A stretch of DNA of 64,000 bases, taken from positions 115,899-179,898 of the forward strand of contig CAWCRS010000010.1 in the NCBI GenBank assembly GCA_963798085.1, given 5' to 3'. The DNA is from an uncultured Gemmatimonadales bacterium. GTDB lineage: Bacteria; Gemmatimonadota; Gemmatimonadetes; Longimicrobiales; RSA9. The notes beneath the pieces are model-generated. The model was not told where the DNA came from and ran no database searches. It saw nothing but the letters and a program-made list of their open reading frames with translations. This document shows, piece by piece, positions 19,185 to 28,992 of the stretch. The translations under genes and the position numbers were made by a program. Every line of letters starts with the position of its first letter. Position 1 is the stretch's first letter.

Positions 19185-19483
19185 CTCGAGCGGCAATCCA
19201 ATGGAGGATACAGCCGGGAGCCGGGGCTCACGAGCCGCGCCGGTCCTGTCGCCAGGTCCTGACCGGCGCTTCACCTCCACGAGCCCTCCTTTGCCCTGGG
19301 CGAGATCGGCCGCCGCGCGACTCAGCACGCGGGATCCGGCAACCGGTGCTGGCCGGCGCGCGAACGCCCGGTCCGAATCCCGCCTCCGTTGCCACGAACC
19401 GTCCGGCTGCCGGCGAGTGGCCTCGCGCGCGCACAGCCCCGCCCCTACATTGCCCGCGTGTTCTCTGACTTCCGGAGGGTGGA

Positions 19484-20083
19484 GTGAAGAACGTTCGGAC
19501 TCTGGCGCTTGCGGTGGGCGGCATGGCGGCACTGGCGCTGCCGCTGCAGGCCCAGCAGACGGCCGAGGAAGTGAAGCCGCTCGAGGTGGGCGCGACTGCG
19601 CCCGACTTCGCGGTGCCCGGCGCCACACGCTACGGCGTGCTGAAGGACCAGATCCACCTCAGCGATTTCAAGGGCAAGACCGTCGTCCTCGCCTTCTTCT
19701 TCAAGGCAAGGACACGAGGCTGAACGATCCAAATGCACGCGTACCGTGATCAGTACGCGCAGATCTTCCACACCGGCCAGAACGTCGTGCTGCTCGCCCT
19801 CAGCGCCGATCCGGTCGACGAGCTGTACGCCTGGGCAAGGGACGACCAGTTCCAGTTCCTGTTCGGCAGCGACAAGGATTTGACGGTCGGCAAGCTGTAC
19901 GGCGCGTACGATCCTCGCCGGCCGACCATGACGAACCGCAACCTGTTCGTGGTTGGACCCGACGGGAAGATCGCGTATCGCGCCGTCCCGTTCCACGAGG
20001 TGGATCCGCAGGCTTACACGGAGTTAGGAGATGCGGTCAGGAAACTGCTGCCGCCGGACACCACGGGAGGCGGCTTCCACTGA
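19484..20083 (+). CDS. Exported AhpC/TSA (BCP/PrxQ-like) peroxiredoxin, probable selenoprotein (Sec at TGA 19721-19723)
   Basis: ORFs 19484-19723 and 19733-20083 are in one frame. LEVGATAPDF...LSDFKGKTVVLAFFFKARTRG-U-TIQM puts TGA at the peroxidatic Cys position. C-terminal RNLFVVGPDGKI; signal peptide; GGAGG upstream. Confidence 0.85.
19724..19765 (+). promoter_or_regulatory. Candidate bacterial SECIS element
   Basis: 7-bp stem CGCGTAC (19738-44)/GTACGCG (19753-59), loop CGTGATCA, lower pairings TG/CA and GATC/GATC, immediately 3' of the TGA. Confidence 0.6.
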
Positions 20084-20140
20084 TATATCCGGACCCCACC
20101 CGGCGCCGCGCTGCACGAAAAACAGGCACGCGGCGCCACG

Positions 20141-20183
20141 AAGAGGGCCACGCCGTCCCACGGACCGCGTGGCCTTCTCTTTT
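20141..20183 (+). terminator. Intrinsic terminator between convergent prx and lspA
   Basis: AGAGGGCCACGC-CGTCC..GGAC-CGCGTGGCCTTCT followed by CTTTT. Confidence 0.65.
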
Positions 20184-20346
20184 GGCGGCTCGCCAGCACT
20201 TCGCTCACTCCCCCTGCAAACCCCTGGAGCTGCCGGCCATGCGCGCGCATCCACTCGTATGTCAGGCGACGATTCTCTTCCCGTTCCAGCGCATCGCATG
20301 CGCCGGTGTCTTGCCACCGCCGGAGTCCAATGGCGAGGCCGCCGTG

Positions 20347-20835
20347 TCACATGCCCGGGCTGGGCGTGGGCTCGGCGCGCGTGGCAAGGATGCTCAGCGC
20401 CAGGATGATGCCGCCGATGGTGATCGCGGCATCGGCCACGTTGAACACGAGAGGAAAGAAGGGGAAGAGCAGAAAGTCGGTGACGCCGCCGTGGGCAATG
20501 CGGTCGCCCAGATTGCCCAGCGCGCCGCCCACCACGAGCGCGATGCCGAGTTGCACGCGTGCGTCGGAGCTGGCTCGCGCCAGCCGCACCAGCAGGAAGA
20601 CAGCCGCGCAGGCCGCCGCGATGAGCAGCGGCGTACGCCAGATGGCGCCGCTCCCGTTGAGAATGCTGAAGGCGACACCGCGGTTCTGCAGGTGCACGAG
20701 GTACAGCCAGCCGTTCACCACGGCCACCTGCTGGTGCATTGCGATGCGGTTCAGGATCAGGAACTTCGACCACCAGTCCGCCGCCACCACCGCCACGGTC
20801 AGCCAGCCTATCCAGCGGCTCCAGCGTGGAATCAT
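20347..20835 (-). CDS. lspA: Lipoprotein signal peptidase II
   Basis: DWWSK, NRGVAFS, GGALGNLGDR, VTDFL, FNVADAAI motifs. Confidence 0.95.
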   Translation of the reverse strand: MIPRWSRWIGWLTVAVVAADWWSKFLILNRIAMHQQVAVVNGWLYLVHLQNRGVAFSILNGSGAIWRTPLLIAAACAAVFLLVRLARASSDARVQLGIALVVGGALGNLGDRIAHGGVTDFLLFPFFPLVFNVADAAITIGGIILALSILATRAEPTPSPGM

Positions 20836-20850
20836 GCGCTTGTGCTCCTG

Positions 20851-23064
20851 TCAGTGTCCCTGGTGGTTCGTTCTGACACGCTGTTCGCGTTCTTCGCGTC
20901 CGCCGTTGCGCGCCATCGTCGCCTGCAGCAGTCCCGCATACCGACGTGATGGAACCGCGCTTTCGATCTGCACGCGAATGGAATCCCGCTTCACGGGCAA
21001 GGCTTGCAGCGTGATGGGCTGCAGCTCGGTCGAGGCAGTCACCGTAATGCTCGCGAGCGTGCGCTGGTAACCGGGCGCCGAAGCCGTCAGTCGGTATACG
21101 CCGCTGACGGGAACCGTGAAGCGGAAGCGGCCCGCGCTGTCCGTCTGCACGCGGTCGCCGCTGCTGCTGTCGGCGGCGATCAGGTCGACCTGCGCGGACG
21201 CGAGCGGTGCGGACCGCGCGTCCACCACACGGCCCGAGATCACGATCGCGCGCTCCGCCGGGCCGTGTGCGAAACGCAGGTCCAGCTGCATGATGCTGTC
21301 TGCGGTGAGGAAACGCTGCGGCGGCGAGGTCACACTGTCCACTGTGATGCGCACCAGGATGTTGCGGTCCGTGGGCAGCGAGCAGACGTGGTAGCGTCCC
21401 TGCTCGTCGGTTAGCGCGGCGGTATCGCGATGCCTGACGGCAAGGCTGGACGGGATGCCGGCGAAGCTGTCCCAGAGAAAATGCAGCTCGGCGCCGCCCA
21501 GGCGCTGGCCGGACGCGGAATCGCGCACCACGCCGTAGACGCGGCTCTCGCGTTGCGCGCGGTCCGCGGGCGGCGGGCAGTCGGCCAGCACACTGCGTCG
21601 GATCGGCGGCAGCGCCACGCGGGTCGCGGTCGTCGAATCCGCTGCCACACGCACCGGCACGCCCGCTGCGGGATACGCGGGCAGCGAATCCAGTCGCGGA
21701 TGACCCAGCGTGAGGGTGTAGAGACCGGCCGGCACGTCATTGATGCGGAAGCGGCCCTGGCCATCGGTGGTGGCGCGCATGGCCGTCCCCTCCAGGCTGA
21801 CCGTCGCTCCCGCTAACGCAACATTACGGGTGCTGTCGAACGCCTCACCCGCGATGCTGCCCGGACTGGCCAGCACCCAGCGCTGCCCGGCAGCGGCGGC
21901 GGCAACGACTTCCCCGCCCTGCTCCGCGAACTGCTTGATGTGCGGCGGCCCCACCAGTGACCCCATGCGCACGGAATTGATCGCGTAGGGCACGCGGATC
22001 AGCCAGCGGCTCACCAGCCAGGCGCCGTTGGGCAGCATGCGGAACTCGACGCGGCCCGATGCCTGGTCGGCGTAGGGCACATCGTCCGCATCCGTGTAGC
22101 GGATCTCGATGAAGTCGAGGTGCTGCGTGTGCGCGTCCAGCCAGGCCACGCCGCTCACGCCCGCCTTCTGCCTGGATCCGCCGGCGGGCGTGAACTCCAC
22201 GCCCAGCAGCTGGCCGTGGTCGGAGCGCGTCAGCGAGAAACAGTGCGAGGTCTCGAACTCGGAGGAGAGCAGCACCGCCGCGGAGGGCGCGTAGTAGCTG
22301 TAGTCGGAGCCGCTGCGGCGGATGTAGCCGTTCTGCAGGAGGTCGGCGGCGGGCAGGCTCACGAACGGCTCACCCAGCCGGGACGCGAAGCGCTGCAGCG
22401 ACTGGTGCAGCGTGACATCCTGGTCGCTCACCACACGGTCGAACGTGTAGCCATCGTACATCACGACGCGCTGCCGGCTCACGATCGCCGAGTTCGCCAG
22501 CGCGCTCCGGGCCGCGTTCCACACGCGCAGGATGTCCGATGCCGAGGAGCGGATGGCGCAGGTCCGCTGCTTCCTCACATCGATCACATCCAGCGTCAGC
22601 GGTTCCACATCCAGGGCAATGTCGAAATGCCGCGTGCCGCCCGGTTCCATGCGGAAGCGTTCGCCCAGCGCCGTCCGATAACCGAGTGTTTGCACGCGCA
22701 GCCGCACCCGGCCCGTGTCCGCCACGTTCAGCAGGAACTCGCCCTGCTCGTTGCTGAGCGTCTGCAGCAGCGACCTGTCGCTGGCACCCAGCAGCTCGAC
22801 CACCGCCGACGGCAGCGCCCGCCCCGACGCCCGATCCGTCACCCGCCCCGTAACCCGCTGCCCCGCCACCGGCCCGCCATGCAGGAGCGCGAGCAGCACG
22901 ATGCACGCAGCGCACAACCGGCCCCCGCCGCCAGGGCGAGAGGAGCGCCAGTCGCGTTTCAGGAGTCGAACCGGATCACCAGGCCGCAAGTGCACGAATC
23001 CGAAGGAAGGTAAACGAAGGCGCCAGAGCACCGCATGAATACGCCCACCCCGAAGGAGAATCAA
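20851..23064 (-). CDS. Exported protein with multiple carboxypeptidase-regulatory-like domains
   Basis: Repeated G-x-V-x-D...L-x-x-A-x-V...TD-x-x-GRF modules. Start probably nearer 22917/22899. Confidence 0.75.
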   Translation of the reverse strand: MILLRGGRIHAVLWRLRLPSFGFVHLRPGDPVRLLKRDWRSSRPGGGGRLCAACIVLLALLHGGPVAGQRVTGRVTDRASGRALPSAVVELLGASDRSLLQTLSNEQGEFLLNVADTGRVRLRVQTLGYRTALGERFRMEPGGTRHFDIALDVEPLTLDVIDVRKQRTCAIRSSASDILRVWNAARSALANSAIVSRQRVVMYDGYTFDRVVSDQDVTLHQSLQRFASRLGEPFVSLPAADLLQNGYIRRSGSDYSYYAPSAAVLLSSEFETSHCFSLTRSDHGQLLGVEFTPAGGSRQKAGVSGVAWLDAHTQHLDFIEIRYTDADDVPYADQASGRVEFRMLPNGAWLVSRWLIRVPYAINSVRMGSLVGPPHIKQFAEQGGEVVAAAAAGQRWVLASPGSIAGEAFDSTRNVALAGATVSLEGTAMRATTDGQGRFRINDVPAGLYTLTLGHPRLDSLPAYPAAGVPVRVAADSTTATRVALPPIRRSVLADCPPPADRAQRESRVYGVVRDSASGQRLGGAELHFLWDSFAGIPSSLAVRHRDTAALTDEQGRYHVCSLPTDRNILVRITVDSVTSPPQRFLTADSIMQLDLRFAHGPAERAIVISGRVVDARSAPLASAQVDLIAADSSSGDRVQTDSAGRFRFTVPVSGVYRLTASAPGYQRTLASITVTASTELQPITLQALPVKRDSIRVQIESAVPSRRYAGLLQATMARNGGREEREQRVRTNHQGH

Positions 23065-23328: not shown

Positions 23329-23872
23329 TCAGTGCCCCAGCAGCTTCCCCACCGCTTCCACGAGCTTCTGCCGGTCGCCCGAACCCGTGTACGCCACCTT
23401 GCCGCTCGGCATCGAGGATCACGATGTACGAGGTGGCGGGCGCATCGTAGGCGCGCACGGCGGCGCCCTTCGCGTCGAAGAACACCTTGCCCGGCAGCGT
23501 GTGCGTCTCCAGATGGCGCTTGATCTGCCGCGGCGTCTGGTTCACGCCCACGCCGATGAACAGGATCTCGAGGTTGTCGCCGAACTGCTTCTTCGCGGCG
23601 CTCAGCTGCGGCTCGAGGGCCCGGCAGAGCGGACACCACGTCGCCCAGAACTCGAGCAGCACGGGTCGCTTGCCGAGGAACTGCTGCAGGTCCACCGCGT
23701 TGCCGTCCAGGTCCTCGACCTGCGCCGCGACGGGTGTCGTGCCGATGGGCAGACCCACGTCCTGCGCCCTGGCCGGTCCGGCCAGCGCCAGCGAGCCGGC
23801 CAGTGCGAGCGCGCCGATCCCCGCCGGCCAGCGGAACGGGAAGCGTCGCCTGACATCCGTTGCGGCTGACAT
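23329..23872 (-). CDS. TlpA-family thioredoxin-like disulfide reductase (frameshift near 3' end)
   Basis: LLEFWATWCPLC; signal peptide; after a shift near 23405 reads GKVAYTGSGDRQKLVEAVGKLLGH*. Confidence 0.85.
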
Positions 23873-24600
23873 CACAGCACCATCCCCATCTGCACGAAGT
23901 AGTACTCGGCCATGGCGATCATCACGATCGCGGCGAGCCGCTTGATCCACAGCATCCAGGCGCCTGAGCGCGGCAACCTCGCCAGCAACCCGCTCGACAG
24001 TCCCACGCCCACGAGCAGCGCGGTCATGCCCAGCGAAAACACGAACAGGTAGACGAAGCCGAGCACTGCGCTCTGCGTGCCTGCCACCCAGGTGAGCACC
24101 GCGGCGAATGCAGGCGCGCCGCAGGGCGCCGCTACAATGCCCGAGGTGGCGCCCAGCAGGAATACGCCGGCCAGCGAACCGCCGCGCAGTGAGCCGGCCC
24201 AGCGCGCCAGCCTGCCGGGCACATTGACCGGGATGACGTCCAGCATAGCCAACCCGAAAATCAGCAGCAGGTTCCCCGTGATGAAGCGGGCCCACGGGCT
24301 GGCCGAGACGGTGCCGAAGAGGGAACCGGTGAGGCCGGCAGCGAGACCGAGGATGGCGTAGAACAGCGCGAGACCGAGGACGTAGGCCGCGGTGAGAGCC
24401 ACGGTTCGCCCGCGCGACGCGCCCGCCGTACTGCCGCCCATGATGCCGGCGGTGATGGGGATCATCGGGTAAATGCAGGGCGTCAGGCTGGTGAGCACGC
24501 CGGCGCCGAAGAGTGTGGCGAGTGCCAGCAGTGGCCGGTGCTGCAGCGACTCGGCCAGTGCGCCGGACTGGAGCAGAGCGCCCGGGCCCGTGACTAGCAC
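23872..24600 (-). CDS. ccdA: CcdA/DsbD transmembrane electron-transfer protein
   Basis: GVLTSLTPCIYPMIP and AAPCGAPAF cysteine motifs; multiple TM helices; stop overlaps the tlpA start. Confidence 0.88.
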   Translation of the reverse strand: MLVTGPGALLQSGALAESLQHRPLLALATLFGAGVLTSLTPCIYPMIPITAGIMGGSTAGASRGRTVALTAAYVLGLALFYAILGLAAGLTGSLFGTVSASPWARFITGNLLLIFGLAMLDVIPVNVPGRLARWAGSLRGGSLAGVFLLGATSGIVAAPCGAPAFAAVLTWVAGTQSAVLGFVYLFVFSLGMTALLVGVGLSSGLLARLPRSGAWMLWIKRLAAIVMIAMAEYYFVQMGMVL

Positions 24601-26386: not shown

Positions 26387-27829
26387 CTATGTCTCGACAT
26401 CGACCCAGCGGACGAGCTCGCGCAGCGGACCGGCGCCATCGTGGTGCCATGTGGGTGGCGGCCAGGGCATGCGCGCAAAATCGGTGATGCGGGTGGCGCC
26501 CGCGCGTGCCAGCGCGTCCGCCAGGGCTGGCCCGCGTGCGCCCACGCCTTCCATGGCAACGGTCTGCAGATATCCGCGCACGGGCTCGATCAGGGATGGC
26601 ACTTCAGCTACGCTCGACACCCGCTTGATGCGCACGGTGCGATTCAGGCAGGATGCCTCGAAGCGGGCATCGGCTTCGTAGATGACGGTCCAGCCGTTGC
26701 CCGTCAGCAGCTCGATCTCCTCGCCCGCAATGGCGCGGAACTCGGCGGCGCCGCGTGTTTCGTGGATGGCCGCGGCTTCGGCGGGCGAGAGCACACCGCG
26801 CGGCAGCTCGGCCGCGACTGCCTCCAGCGCGGCGGCCAGGCAGTGCGCGAAGCCGCGCGCGCCGATCCCCGCCTCCTCGACATACACGATGTGCGGTGAA
26901 ACGCACCCCTGCTGATCGAACAGCGATACCGCCCATGCAACGCGTGCCGCTGCCGTGTTAGCCAATTCCGGCGAGGCGAGTGCGTCGCCGCCCAGCAGAC
27001 CGATGGACACACGCGGACCGTGGTCGATCACGCGCGTCGTAGCCGGCGCGCGACTGCGCATGGCGCGCACCGCATCCCCACCGCCATAGACCACGATGGC
27101 ATCCGCCGCCGTCACCGCCTCATCCTCGACGAGCGACTGCCCTCCGGGCCAATAGGTCACAGCCAGACAGTCGGCCAGTCCGCTGTCCACCGAAGCCAGA
27201 GCGCGGGCAAACAGCACTGTCAGGAGCGGGTCGCCGGACGCGGTCTTGCCCAGCATCGCGCCCTTGACCAGCAGTGTGCGCACCAGCGCGGTCACGGCCA
27301 CGCCCGGCACACTGCCGGAGAACACGTGGAAGGCCAGGCGAGGACCGAGAGCCCGTGTGTGTACGCCGTGCCGTCTCTGGTAGCCGTCCAGCACGTGACC
27401 CGGCAGCTCGCTGTCCAGCAGATGCAGCAGCGCCGCTTCGCTCCAGTCGTCGCTGAAGCGATCCAGCAGCAGGCGGATCATGGCCGGCGAATAGCCCGTG
27501 ATTTGCGGCAGCGCACGCTCTGCCAGCTGGCGCAACGCGTCATCGGGTTGCGCCAGACGGTGCGCCGCGCGACCCAGGCAATGCGCAATGGCGGCCGCCG
27601 GCAGCGGCTCGAGCGCAATGCGCCGCGACGCTTCCATCCTGGCCAGCAGTGCGGTCAGTGCGCCTTCGCGCAGAACGGGGAAACGCAGCGTCACACCCCG
27701 GCCGTACTCGCGCACCTCCCACGCTGTCACATCATCTGCTGTGAGACCCGGCAGATGGAACGCGTCGATCACCGTGCTGCCGGTGCCGACATCGCGGTGC
27801 GGTGCGGGCGAGGCGCTCACCGAGTTCAT
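26387..27829 (-). CDS. luxC: LuxC-family acyl-CoA reductase
   Basis: HVFSGSVPG, LGKTAS, YGGGDAV, FDQQGCVSPH (catalytic Cys), WHHDG. Confidence 0.88.
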   Translation of the reverse strand: MNSVSASPAPHRDVGTGSTVIDAFHLPGLTADDVTAWEVREYGRGVTLRFPVLREGALTALLARMEASRRIALEPLPAAAIAHCLGRAAHRLAQPDDALRQLAERALPQITGYSPAMIRLLLDRFSDDWSEAALLHLLDSELPGHVLDGYQRRHGVHTRALGPRLAFHVFSGSVPGVAVTALVRTLLVKGAMLGKTASGDPLLTVLFARALASVDSGLADCLAVTYWPGGQSLVEDEAVTAADAIVVYGGGDAVRAMRSRAPATTRVIDHGPRVSIGLLGGDALASPELANTAAARVAWAVSLFDQQGCVSPHIVYVEEAGIGARGFAHCLAAALEAVAAELPRGVLSPAEAAAIHETRGAAEFRAIAGEEIELLTGNGWTVIYEADARFEASCLNRTVRIKRVSSVAEVPSLIEPVRGYLQTVAMEGVGARGPALADALARAGATRITDFARMPWPPPTWHHDGAGPLRELVRWVDVET

Positions 27830-28992
27830 GCCCTTCCCTCGGCCTGCGCTGTGGTCTGCATGCCACGCTCCTGCAATGCGAGCAGCAGTTCATCCATCGC
27901 CAGCGAACAGCCGCGCGGCTCCGCACCAGCCGCGCGACCCAGCACGCGGAATCCGTCATCGACCAGAATGCCCATGTCCTCGGTCTGCACGGCAAGGACC
28001 GAGCCGAGGTTGGCCAGATCGACGTGGCGCAGCAGGCCAGTGGCGCCCGCCGGCAGCGGCTCCAGTGTTTCCGGGTCCACGACCAGCGTGCGCACCCACG
28101 GCGGCGCCAGCTTGCGGCGGTTCCCCGCGGCACCCGACCGGACGCGCTCGAACAGCGTGCTGTCGTAGAACTGCGAGCACAGCTCGGTCATGCCGTACTC
28201 GTTGACGCAGTGCGTGGGCGGGATGGCGCAGCGCTCGAGGTAGAGCGCGCGCAGCGCGTCCTCGCCGACGTCGCGACCGCGACCCTTGAAGCCGCCCGTG
28301 TCCATGAGACGCGAGCCCGCGGGCAGCCGATAGCGACGCTGCTTCGCCAGCAGCTCGTCCGTCCAGTGCACGAACGCGGAGGCGGTGCCCAGCAGACACA
28401 CCGGCTCGCCCGCGCGCTGCGCCTCGTGCAGCGCTTCGTCCAGCGTGTCGCCGGCAATGCCGTGCGCCGTGGATGCGAACCAGCCGCTGCGCCGCGACCC
28501 CAGCTGTTCCATCACCGTGGCGATCATGTGCGCGAGTGACGAGTCCGGCAGATCGCGGGGGGGCGGCACCAGTGAGAACATGGCAAGGCGAGCGCCGTCG
28601 GGCAGCACCATGGCCGCAAAGGCGGGCAGCAGCGAACAATGGTAGAGCGACAGATCCAGCACGTAATGCGAGCCGCGGCGCTGCTCACCGCGCGTCGTGC
28701 CGCTGGTACGGAACACGGCCTCGGCATCCGCTGCCCGGCCCGCCACTAACACCGCATGCTTGAAGGCGGCCGTGGGCACGGCCGGAATATCCAGCCAGCT
28801 GGTGACGCGGTCGGGTGTGCGGCCGCGGCGCTCGCAGTACGCGGCATAGGGCCGGTTGCGCTCGAACTGCCACGCGAATGCGGCCGTCGCCAGCGCATTG
28901 AACTGCGCGTCCTCCAGGCGGGTGCCGGGTGGCCTGGCCAGCGCCGCATCCAGAGCCGCGAGCAGCGCACGCGGTGGTGTGACCGGGCTCAT
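27826..28992 (-). CDS. luxE: LuxE-family acyl-protein synthetase
   Basis: IPAVPTAAFK, FRTSGTT, MDTGGFKGR, EYGMTELCSQ, DLAN, QTEDMG, GRAAGAEPRGCS. Confidence 0.88.
   Translation of the reverse strand: MSPVTPPRALLAALDAALARPPGTRLEDAQFNALATAAFAWQFERNRPYAAYCERRGRTPDRVTSWLDIPAVPTAAFKHAVLVAGRAADAEAVFRTSGTTRGEQRRGSHYVLDLSLYHCSLLPAFAAMVLPDGARLAMFSLVPPPRDLPDSSLAHMIATVMEQLGSRRSGWFASTAHGIAGDTLDEALHEAQRAGEPVCLLGTASAFVHWTDELLAKQRRYRLPAGSRLMDTGGFKGRGRDVGEDALRALYLERCAIPPTHCVNEYGMTELCSQFYDSTLFERVRSGAAGNRRKLAPPWVRTLVVDPETLEPLPAGATGLLRHVDLANLGSVLAVQTEDMGILVDDGFRVLGRAAGAEPRGCSLAMDELLLALQERGMQTTAQAEGRA

Follow-up and report, generated by a model that had tools for sequence, protein, structure and literature searches.

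A gene of an uncultured Gemmatimonadales bacterium that is held in protein collections as two fragments almost certainly is one gene, and its apparent internal stop codon, judged by comparison with homologs, almost certainly encodes selenocysteine (Sec) at the active site of a peroxiredoxin-fold protein. The gene is located in the window, i.e. the whole 64,000-nucleotide stretch of contig CAWCRS010000010.1 that was analysed. Taken as a whole, the data are best explained, with good confidence, by an exported one-Sec peroxiredoxin. The features discussed are collected in Table 1.

Table 1. Features of the peroxiredoxin locus, in window coordinates.
Feature	Position	Strand	Basis or remark
Ribosome-binding-site-like GGAGG	19474..19478	+	5 nt ahead of the GTG start; read from the sequence
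Peroxiredoxin-fold selenoprotein gene, predicted exported, 199 aa	19484..20083	+	GTG start, TGA end; Pfam AhpC-TSA, AlphaFold2, Foldseek
Probable cleavable signal peptide, residues 1-23	19484..19552	+	Sequence pattern; architecture recurs in homologs
Phe73, column of the PxxxTxxC proline	19700..19702	+	Homolog alignments
Thr77 of the TxxU motif	19712..19714	+	Thr, otherwise Ser; conservation 90% or higher
In-frame TGA, inferred selenocysteine 80, column of the peroxidatic Cys	19721..19723	+	Homolog alignments, selA co-occurrence
Putative SECIS hairpin, 7-bp stem and 8-nt loop, G at 19746	19738..19759	+	Sequence, conservation, covariation, bSECIS criteria
Arg152, catalytic arginine column of peroxiredoxins	19937..19939	+	Invariant in alignments A2, A3 and A4; aligns with the Sulfolobus Bcp Arg
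Second terminator-like hairpin	20125..20137	-	Consensus match only
Terminator-like hairpin behind the peroxiredoxin gene	20158..20172	+	Consensus match only
TlpA-like CxxC thioredoxin (WCPLC), signal-like N-terminus, candidate electron donor	23329..23872	-	Under the NCBIfam TlpA and ResA cut-offs
CcdA/DsbD-type transmembrane electron transporter	23872..24600	-	Pfam DsbD_TM 153 bits; stop overlaps the tlpA start

The frame consists of 199 codons and a terminal TGA, and a second TGA at codon 80 (translated context FFFKARTRG*TIQM) is its sole internal stop. No Cys codon is present. The first-pass annotation had read the gene as a probable selenoprotein, pointing to a frame interrupted only by this TGA, a protein without any Cys, a Phe in place of the motif proline, and a 7-bp hairpin that begins 14 nt past the TGA and has a G near the 5' side of its loop; each of these is borne out by the translation, the alignments or the sequence itself. 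Its prediction that pipelines would split the gene in two also proved correct, as the protein collections contain entries of 79 aa and 116 aa, and pieces of 111-113 aa from close relatives are likewise present there. Three matches to the terminator consensus were found against 0.7 expected, while no match to the sigma-70 promoter consensus was found.

A scan of GTDB contigs using six search peptides, one of which favoured Cys, returned 39 homologous loci with 58-78% identity (37 titled Gemmatimonadota and two titled 'bacterium'). The catalytic column is TGA in 38 of these and TGC in one (L040), the two states that the first-pass annotation had proposed to look for. Across the phylum, a homolog at E <= 1e-20 was detected in 173 of 201 sampled genomes, nearly all in one class. 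Among the 150 phylum matches listed (45 further matches are not among them), at least one TGA is present in 130, none in 19, and only TAG in one. Three unpublished genomes (G181, G156 and G056) contribute to these tallies, and the conclusions do not depend on them. All 88 TGA copies that were fetched (one from G181) carry the codon in register, at 44-78% identity. The distribution of selA was determined in 67 genomes chosen by hand (the full set of 20 in which a listed match is free of TGA, plus 47 others). It was found that selA is present in 50/50 genomes with a TGA copy and absent from 16/17 with only a Cys copy listed, G027 being the exception (selA in 51/67 overall); no p-value is attached since kin genomes are not independent.

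The bacterium's own genome assembly (6.23 Mb, 12 contigs, 90% complete) was inspected for selA, selB, selC and selD, as the first-pass annotation had suggested, and all four were found: selA with 576.8 bits (cut-off 267.9), selB with 347.9 bits (cut-off 242), selD with 391.9 bits (cut-off 125) and a tRNA-Sec (selC) with anticodon UCA. These genes, together with the TGA or Cys in homologs, support the reading as a probable selenoprotein. The selD gene (G000:C3:871853-872776; L004:1532-1534) has an in-frame TGA of its own, in the context G-A-G-U-A-C-K, and SelD is by its sequence a probable selenoprotein too; the hairpin following the selD TGA (z -0.26) has no obvious sequence in common with the peroxiredoxin hairpin. 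A SelW/SelT/SelH-family gene with CxxU (G000:C3:535002-535211; L128:1525-1527), scoring above two NCBIfam cut-offs, is the probable third selenoprotein of this genome. The four matches to molybdopterin oxidoreductases are stop-free in the matched part, although the Pfam model may not span the Sec site of formate dehydrogenase.

The hairpin behind the peroxiredoxin TGA pairs CGCGTAC with GTACGCG (19738-19744 with 19753-19759) around the 8-nt loop CGTGATCA, with G at the second position, and approximately four-fifths of homologs retain two extra pairs (19734-35 with 19760-61). According to PMC13188914, the bSECIS model allows a loop of 3-9 nt, a stem of 4-16 bp, a G in the first two loop positions, a spacing of 16-37 nt and an MFE <= -7.5. 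Assessed by hand, the hairpin lies within these limits, with a UGA-to-loop distance of 21 nt and an MFE of -10.5 to -13.9 kcal/mol. Loop and stem length, the 21-nt spacing and the G in second position followed by U agree with the bacterial SECIS consensus as PMC13188914 describes it. In contrast, the 8-nt loop exceeds the loop pattern said there to be 'mostly' seen, and the core is identical base for base over most of a phylum.

Hairpin stability does not differ significantly from that of shuffled sequences (z = -1.24 for 60 nt, -1.74 for 46 nt, +0.10 for 80 nt and -0.86 for 101 nt). Hence, folding energy cannot tell the hairpin from chance, and the case rests on comparison and conservation. 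The exact 20-nt core, which occurs a single time in the genome, is present in 85/88 TGA copies (the exceptions being L014, L051 and L112) versus 0/21 Cys copies. Many of the Cys copies also alter the encoded peptide at the core, so the contrast is partly at the protein level; such a change is expected once the RNA constraint is lifted. In a 40-row alignment of the stem, 94.7% of cells are paired, and the outer stem pair is compensatory (U-A in 21 rows, C-G in 17, unpaired in 2), with both bases at synonymous third positions, one in a His codon and the other in an Ala codon. Covariation is limited to this one pair. When the pairing partners were slid as a control, a slide of -2 equalled the true covariation score (0.112), but with 66% rather than 95% of cells paired and no double change. 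The Cys/Pro copy at L040:3090-3215 retains the hairpin sequence over approximately its first half, with the 3' arm broken, and might be a relic of a Sec ancestor.

Had the TGA arisen through faulty sequencing or by recent nonsense mutation, the gene would be an artefact or a pseudogene; alternatively, the two pieces could be two real proteins. An apparent indel is present nearby in the assembly, the TGA is followed by an ATG (Met84), and each piece indeed has an entry as a separate protein. Against this, the same TGA is found in register in every TGA copy fetched, down to 44% identity, it co-occurs with selA, and the hairpin core has gone from all 21 Cys copies. Met84 is, furthermore, just as conserved in the unsplit Cys proteins. 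We therefore consider error, decay or a pair of genes extremely improbable. The UGA might instead be read as another residue, either by genome-wide recoding to Trp or Gly or as Cys via the Sec apparatus. Insertion of Cys by Sec-type machinery does occur in some bacteria, and Trp stands at this column in two full-length database proteins (P0024 and P0119), in which it probably stems from gene callers using TGA as Trp. The peroxiredoxin gene, ccdA and tlpA all terminate in TGA, however, the genome has tRNA-Sec, SelA and SelD, and TGA tracks selA in 50/50 genomes, so that decoding as a different residue merits hardly any credence. Insertion of Sec at UGA80, in comparison, can be regarded as nearly certain from the sequence comparisons.

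The protein is a member of Pfam AhpC-TSA (PF00578) with 87 bits against a cut-off of 26. No NCBIfam family reaches its cut-off, with BCP (NF006960) at 60.9 of 140 and PrxU (NF040737) at 52.8 of 270; two Cys orthologs likewise remain under the BCP and PrxU cut-offs. An AlphaFold2 model, generated with Cys placed at position 80 and a 71-row alignment, has a pLDDT of 92.2. Foldseek ranks Bcp4 (3hjp) as the best match (TM 0.76/0.84) and all listed matches are peroxiredoxins, but the subfamily call is soft since Prx1-type chains score nearly as well. The best sequence matches among solved structures are archaeal BCP proteins (E 1e-14 to 4e-11). A comparison to BCP/PrxQ structures (Sulfolobus Bcp4 3hjp and 2ywn/4g2e; Aeropyrum 2cx3) shows that the Thr, the peroxidatic column and the Arg align, whereas these are cytoplasmic Cys enzymes of approximately 29-30% identity in which the motif Pro is present. 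The fold, Thr, Cys/Sec and Arg of the canonical peroxiredoxin motif are thus all found, with Phe73 in place of the Pro; the protein is accordingly not filed as a canonical-motif Prx, though a peroxiredoxin-like working is likely. The genome contains nine AhpC/TSA-domain matches, of which only this gene has a TGA and one other is a canonical cytoplasmic BCP with the motif PKDDTSGC. The N-terminus has the look of a secretory (Sec-pathway) signal, with K/R, a hydrophobic core and L-Q-A ahead of Gln24 as the mature start, and conservation of the Gln24 column reaches at least 90% across 71 sequences. On this pattern, export to the envelope is predicted, and we consider it very likely.

The motif proline has been described as absolutely conserved in PXXXTXXC (PMC3322552), as highly conserved in PxxxTxxU (PMC13188914), and as a barrier to solvent (PMC3337327). 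In 60 TGA copies (38 GTDB loci and 22 further loci, two sets that may overlap) this column is Phe in 43, Tyr in 11, His in one, Val in one and Pro in four. It is therefore non-Pro in 56/60, and 55 of the 56 replacements belong to the aromatic class (F, Y, H). The Cys homologs present the opposite picture. Full-length proteins were aligned for 70 of 120 listed matches, and the 67 Cys proteins among them all have Pro seven residues ahead of the catalytic residue, as do all 21 genomic Cys loci, one of which (L078) is also in the protein set. In the remaining three full-length proteins the catalytic column is Leu or Trp and the Pro column is Phe/Tyr; these proteins probably represent TGA alleles translated under another code. 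On these alignments the exchange of Pro for Phe is a family trait tied to Sec and no private quirk of the window protein. The aromatic residue occurs only with Sec, while Sec tolerates Pro.

Nearest-neighbour identities bear on how often the two positions have changed together. The Cys/Pro copy L040 shares 75, 73 and 70% identity with three Sec/Phe copies, compared to 68% with one Cys copy and 49-57% with five others. For L081, also Cys/Pro, the values are 65 and 63% with two different Sec/Phe copies and 54-59% with five Cys copies. In the case of L087, identities of 59% with a Sec copy and 58% with a Cys copy are too close to count. Since the closest Sec/aromatic copy differs from one Cys/Pro copy to another, these identities imply at least two coupled switches between Sec/aromatic and Cys/Pro.

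Individual genomes add variations to this picture. G027, from the window's own family, has selA and yet a Cys/Pro copy (L078) without the hairpin core; by its sequence, this copy has switched to Cys in a genome that retains selA. A tandem of one Cys and one TGA copy is found in G084 (L093:176-688 and 781-1245), with Pro in both, and G047 and G139 each contain one copy of either kind. In four database proteins (P0009, P0024, P0117 and P0119) Leu, Trp or Val occupies the catalytic column and Phe/Tyr the Pro column; gene callers have probably misread TGA alleles here.

A ccdA-tlpA pair is located 3.2 kb downstream of the peroxiredoxin gene on the opposite strand. The tlpA-like gene (544 nt) contains an apparent +1 frameshift near 23405 in the assembly, in agreement with the earlier remark that errors elsewhere in the window are indels; an apparent single-base insertion, be it an assembly error or real, would give this gene a wrong called C-terminus. 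Linkage was assessed in 50 hand-picked genomes, which are kin, with few-contig assemblies and the window's own family favoured. A tlpA-like gene is found within 5 kb of the peroxiredoxin gene in 23/50 (with <250 nt between matches in 18/50) and ccdA in 21/50, and the tlpA/ccdA linkage spans seven families. The tlpA-like gene is unlinked in the other 27/50, though tlpA-like genes are present in 50/50, and a ccdA match of any kind was seen in 47/50. In the two loci examined in full, ccdA-tlpA is placed tail-to-tail with the peroxiredoxin gene, a convergent arrangement that implies no shared transcript. In G191, tlpA is still beside the peroxiredoxin gene with ccdA 13 kb off. As a control, lspA was linked in 0/7 genomes, a weak comparison given that only 7/50 have a match. 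At 20347-23064 of the window (minus strand), lspA (signal peptidase II) and a gene for a 737-aa carboxypeptidase-regulatory-like repeat protein separate the peroxiredoxin gene from tlpA-ccdA. Peroxiredoxin and tlpA-ccdA adjoin directly in many relatives, and the two intervening genes look inserted in this lineage; lspA matches in relatives reach merely 34-40% identity.

We propose that SelB with Sec-tRNA, acting on the hairpin 14 nt downstream, decodes UGA80 as selenocysteine. The 199-aa precursor would be exported to the cell envelope with cleavage of the signal peptide before Gln24, and the mature protein, with its predicted peroxiredoxin fold, would act as a BCP/PrxQ-type peroxidase. The Sec80 selenolate, held by Thr77 and Arg152, would attack peroxide to form a selenenic acid; sequence comparison makes peroxidase activity quite probable. 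As there is no Cys in the chain, neither an internal nor an inter-subunit disulfide can form and an outside dithiol must resolve the oxidised enzyme. The best candidate would be the TlpA-like protein, which has a CxxC, is predicted to be exported and would be maintained in the reduced state by the co-encoded CcdA. In Caulobacter, electrons from ScsB reach the periplasmic peroxiredoxin PprX via TlpA, and CcdA is able to substitute for ScsB, according to PMC3322552. Linkage together with this PprX precedent favours, to a modest degree, recycling by CcdA-TlpA, which would attack the oxidised Sec directly since a resolving Cys is lacking. The motif proline would be dispensable with selenium and required with sulfur. 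The fullest version of this model is a phylum-wide envelope one-Sec peroxidase of Gemmatimonadota with an active site rebuilt for selenium, in which an aromatic ring replaces the Pro and caps the selenol, CcdA-TlpA recycles the enzyme directly, and selA loss leads to a repeated joint switch from Sec to Cys and from aromatic to Pro. This combination is advanced tentatively, with the balance somewhat against it.

The exported selenoprotein might serve mainly in a capacity other than peroxide scavenging, loss of the Pro having turned it into a selenol-disulfide oxidoreductase, a redox sensor or an envelope-protein repair enzyme working with TlpA/CcdA. The replaced proline, the missed NCBIfam peroxiredoxin cut-offs, the separate canonical BCP in the cytoplasm and the lack of a peroxide phenotype upon PprX deletion, as given in PMC3322552, can be cited in its favour. 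However, Thr and Arg are retained, there is no second Cys for disulfide exchange, and orthologs (65-75% identical) with the full PxxxTxxC stand in for the Sec form where selA is absent, which argues for the same job; a non-scavenging role is therefore unlikely. With regard to recycling, a small thiol or another envelope reductase could serve the Sec peroxidase, with the proximity of ccdA-tlpA reflecting inherited gene order without functional link. The 27/50 unlinked genomes, the convergent orientation and the presence of tlpA-like genes in 50/50 genomes irrespective of linkage are consistent with this, and CcdA/TlpA pairs also serve cytochrome c maturation (PMC3322552). On the other hand, the linkage extends over seven families with <250 nt between matches in 18/50, tlpA stays beside the gene in G191 despite ccdA being 13 kb away, and TlpA is the demonstrated donor for PprX (PMC3322552). 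A different reductant is thus a possibility of some weight, and one we are inclined to doubt. The aromatic residue itself might be without a selenium-linked role: selenium could relax the need for Pro, the change then being inherited and only Pro-regaining copies surviving a return to Cys, or the codon could matter for translation near the UGA. Four TGA copies combine Pro with an intact hairpin core, which indicates that Sec can be used without the aromatic residue. The replacements are no random mix, as 55/56 are aromatic, and the proximity of Cys/Pro copies to different Sec/aromatic copies implies more than one coupled switch. Such relaxation has nearly an even chance of being correct, and a selenium-specific role for the aromatic residue may likewise be put at just short of even.

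Sec-peroxiredoxins have long been known, with the prototype reportedly that of Eubacterium acidaminophilum (said to have been described by Sohling et al. in 2001), as have periplasmic peroxiredoxins, and both the chemistry and the decoding mechanism discussed here are of known kinds. The Sargasso Sea set contains 43 Sec-peroxiredoxin (TxxU) genes (PMC1088965), and the family (Prx, PF00578/COG1225) is reviewed in PMC9312934 and PMC13188914. The window protein shares with known members the UGA at the peroxidatic position, TxxU, a downstream SECIS, PF00578 and the existence of Cys orthologs. It differs in its predicted signal peptide, in Phe/Tyr for the Pro of the 'highly conserved PxxxTxxU' (PMC13188914), in having zero Cys, and in a score far under the NCBIfam PrxU cut-off (52.8 of 270). 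Gemmatimonadota, the periplasm and signal peptides go unmentioned in the available text of the reviews and surveys on Sec-peroxiredoxins. PprX of Caulobacter crescentus, likened here on its published description, has the same BCP-like fold, an N-terminal signal sequence of the kind predicted here, and an exported thioredoxin-like protein with a DsbD-family transporter as the likely electron source (PMC3322552). It has Cys, an intact PXXXTXXC, a disulfide with a second Cys, and ScsB (PMC3322552), in contrast to the window protein, which has a probable Sec, lacks both the Pro and a resolving residue, and has CcdA as the candidate transporter. A second, resolving Cys of the PprX type is found neither here nor in the Cys orthologs shown, which have a single Cys. 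Neither this branch nor the proline swap is described in the available text of published work on bacterial selenoproteins and peroxiredoxins, and the main text of PMC12013277 gave no match for the branch; survey supplements or BSepDB (PMC13326102) may list the genes. Replacement of the Pro in Sec copies only, the lack of a resolving Cys and probable export appear, from the sequences compared, to set this branch apart.

These observations correct a systematic annotation error, by which a widespread gene of an abundant phylum is stored as two fragments. They mark much of Gemmatimonadota as probable selenocysteine users (homologs in 173/201 sampled genomes, selA in 51/67 tested) and suggest that the cell envelope, an oxidising compartment, has a peroxide defence built on a selenol. 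The Sec/aromatic and Cys/Pro pairs offer natural material on why selenium is used over sulfur and on the role of the peroxiredoxin proline. If the active site has indeed been rebuilt for selenium, the Sec/Phe and Cys/Pro pairs of 65-75% identity would constitute a ready-made test of selenium's gain.

Among the sequencing runs listed, none covers half of this stretch and no RNA run matches it; two soil runs yielded only short pieces of relatives. A 169-nt contig from one of them (run X1) is identical to the intergenic terminator region at 20111-20279, and run X1 contains only diverged pieces of the peroxiredoxin gene itself. Further along the window, two neighbouring open reading frames at 26387-28992 (minus strand) resemble, by their motifs, an acyl-protein synthetase and an acyl-CoA reductase of the LuxE/LuxC-like type.
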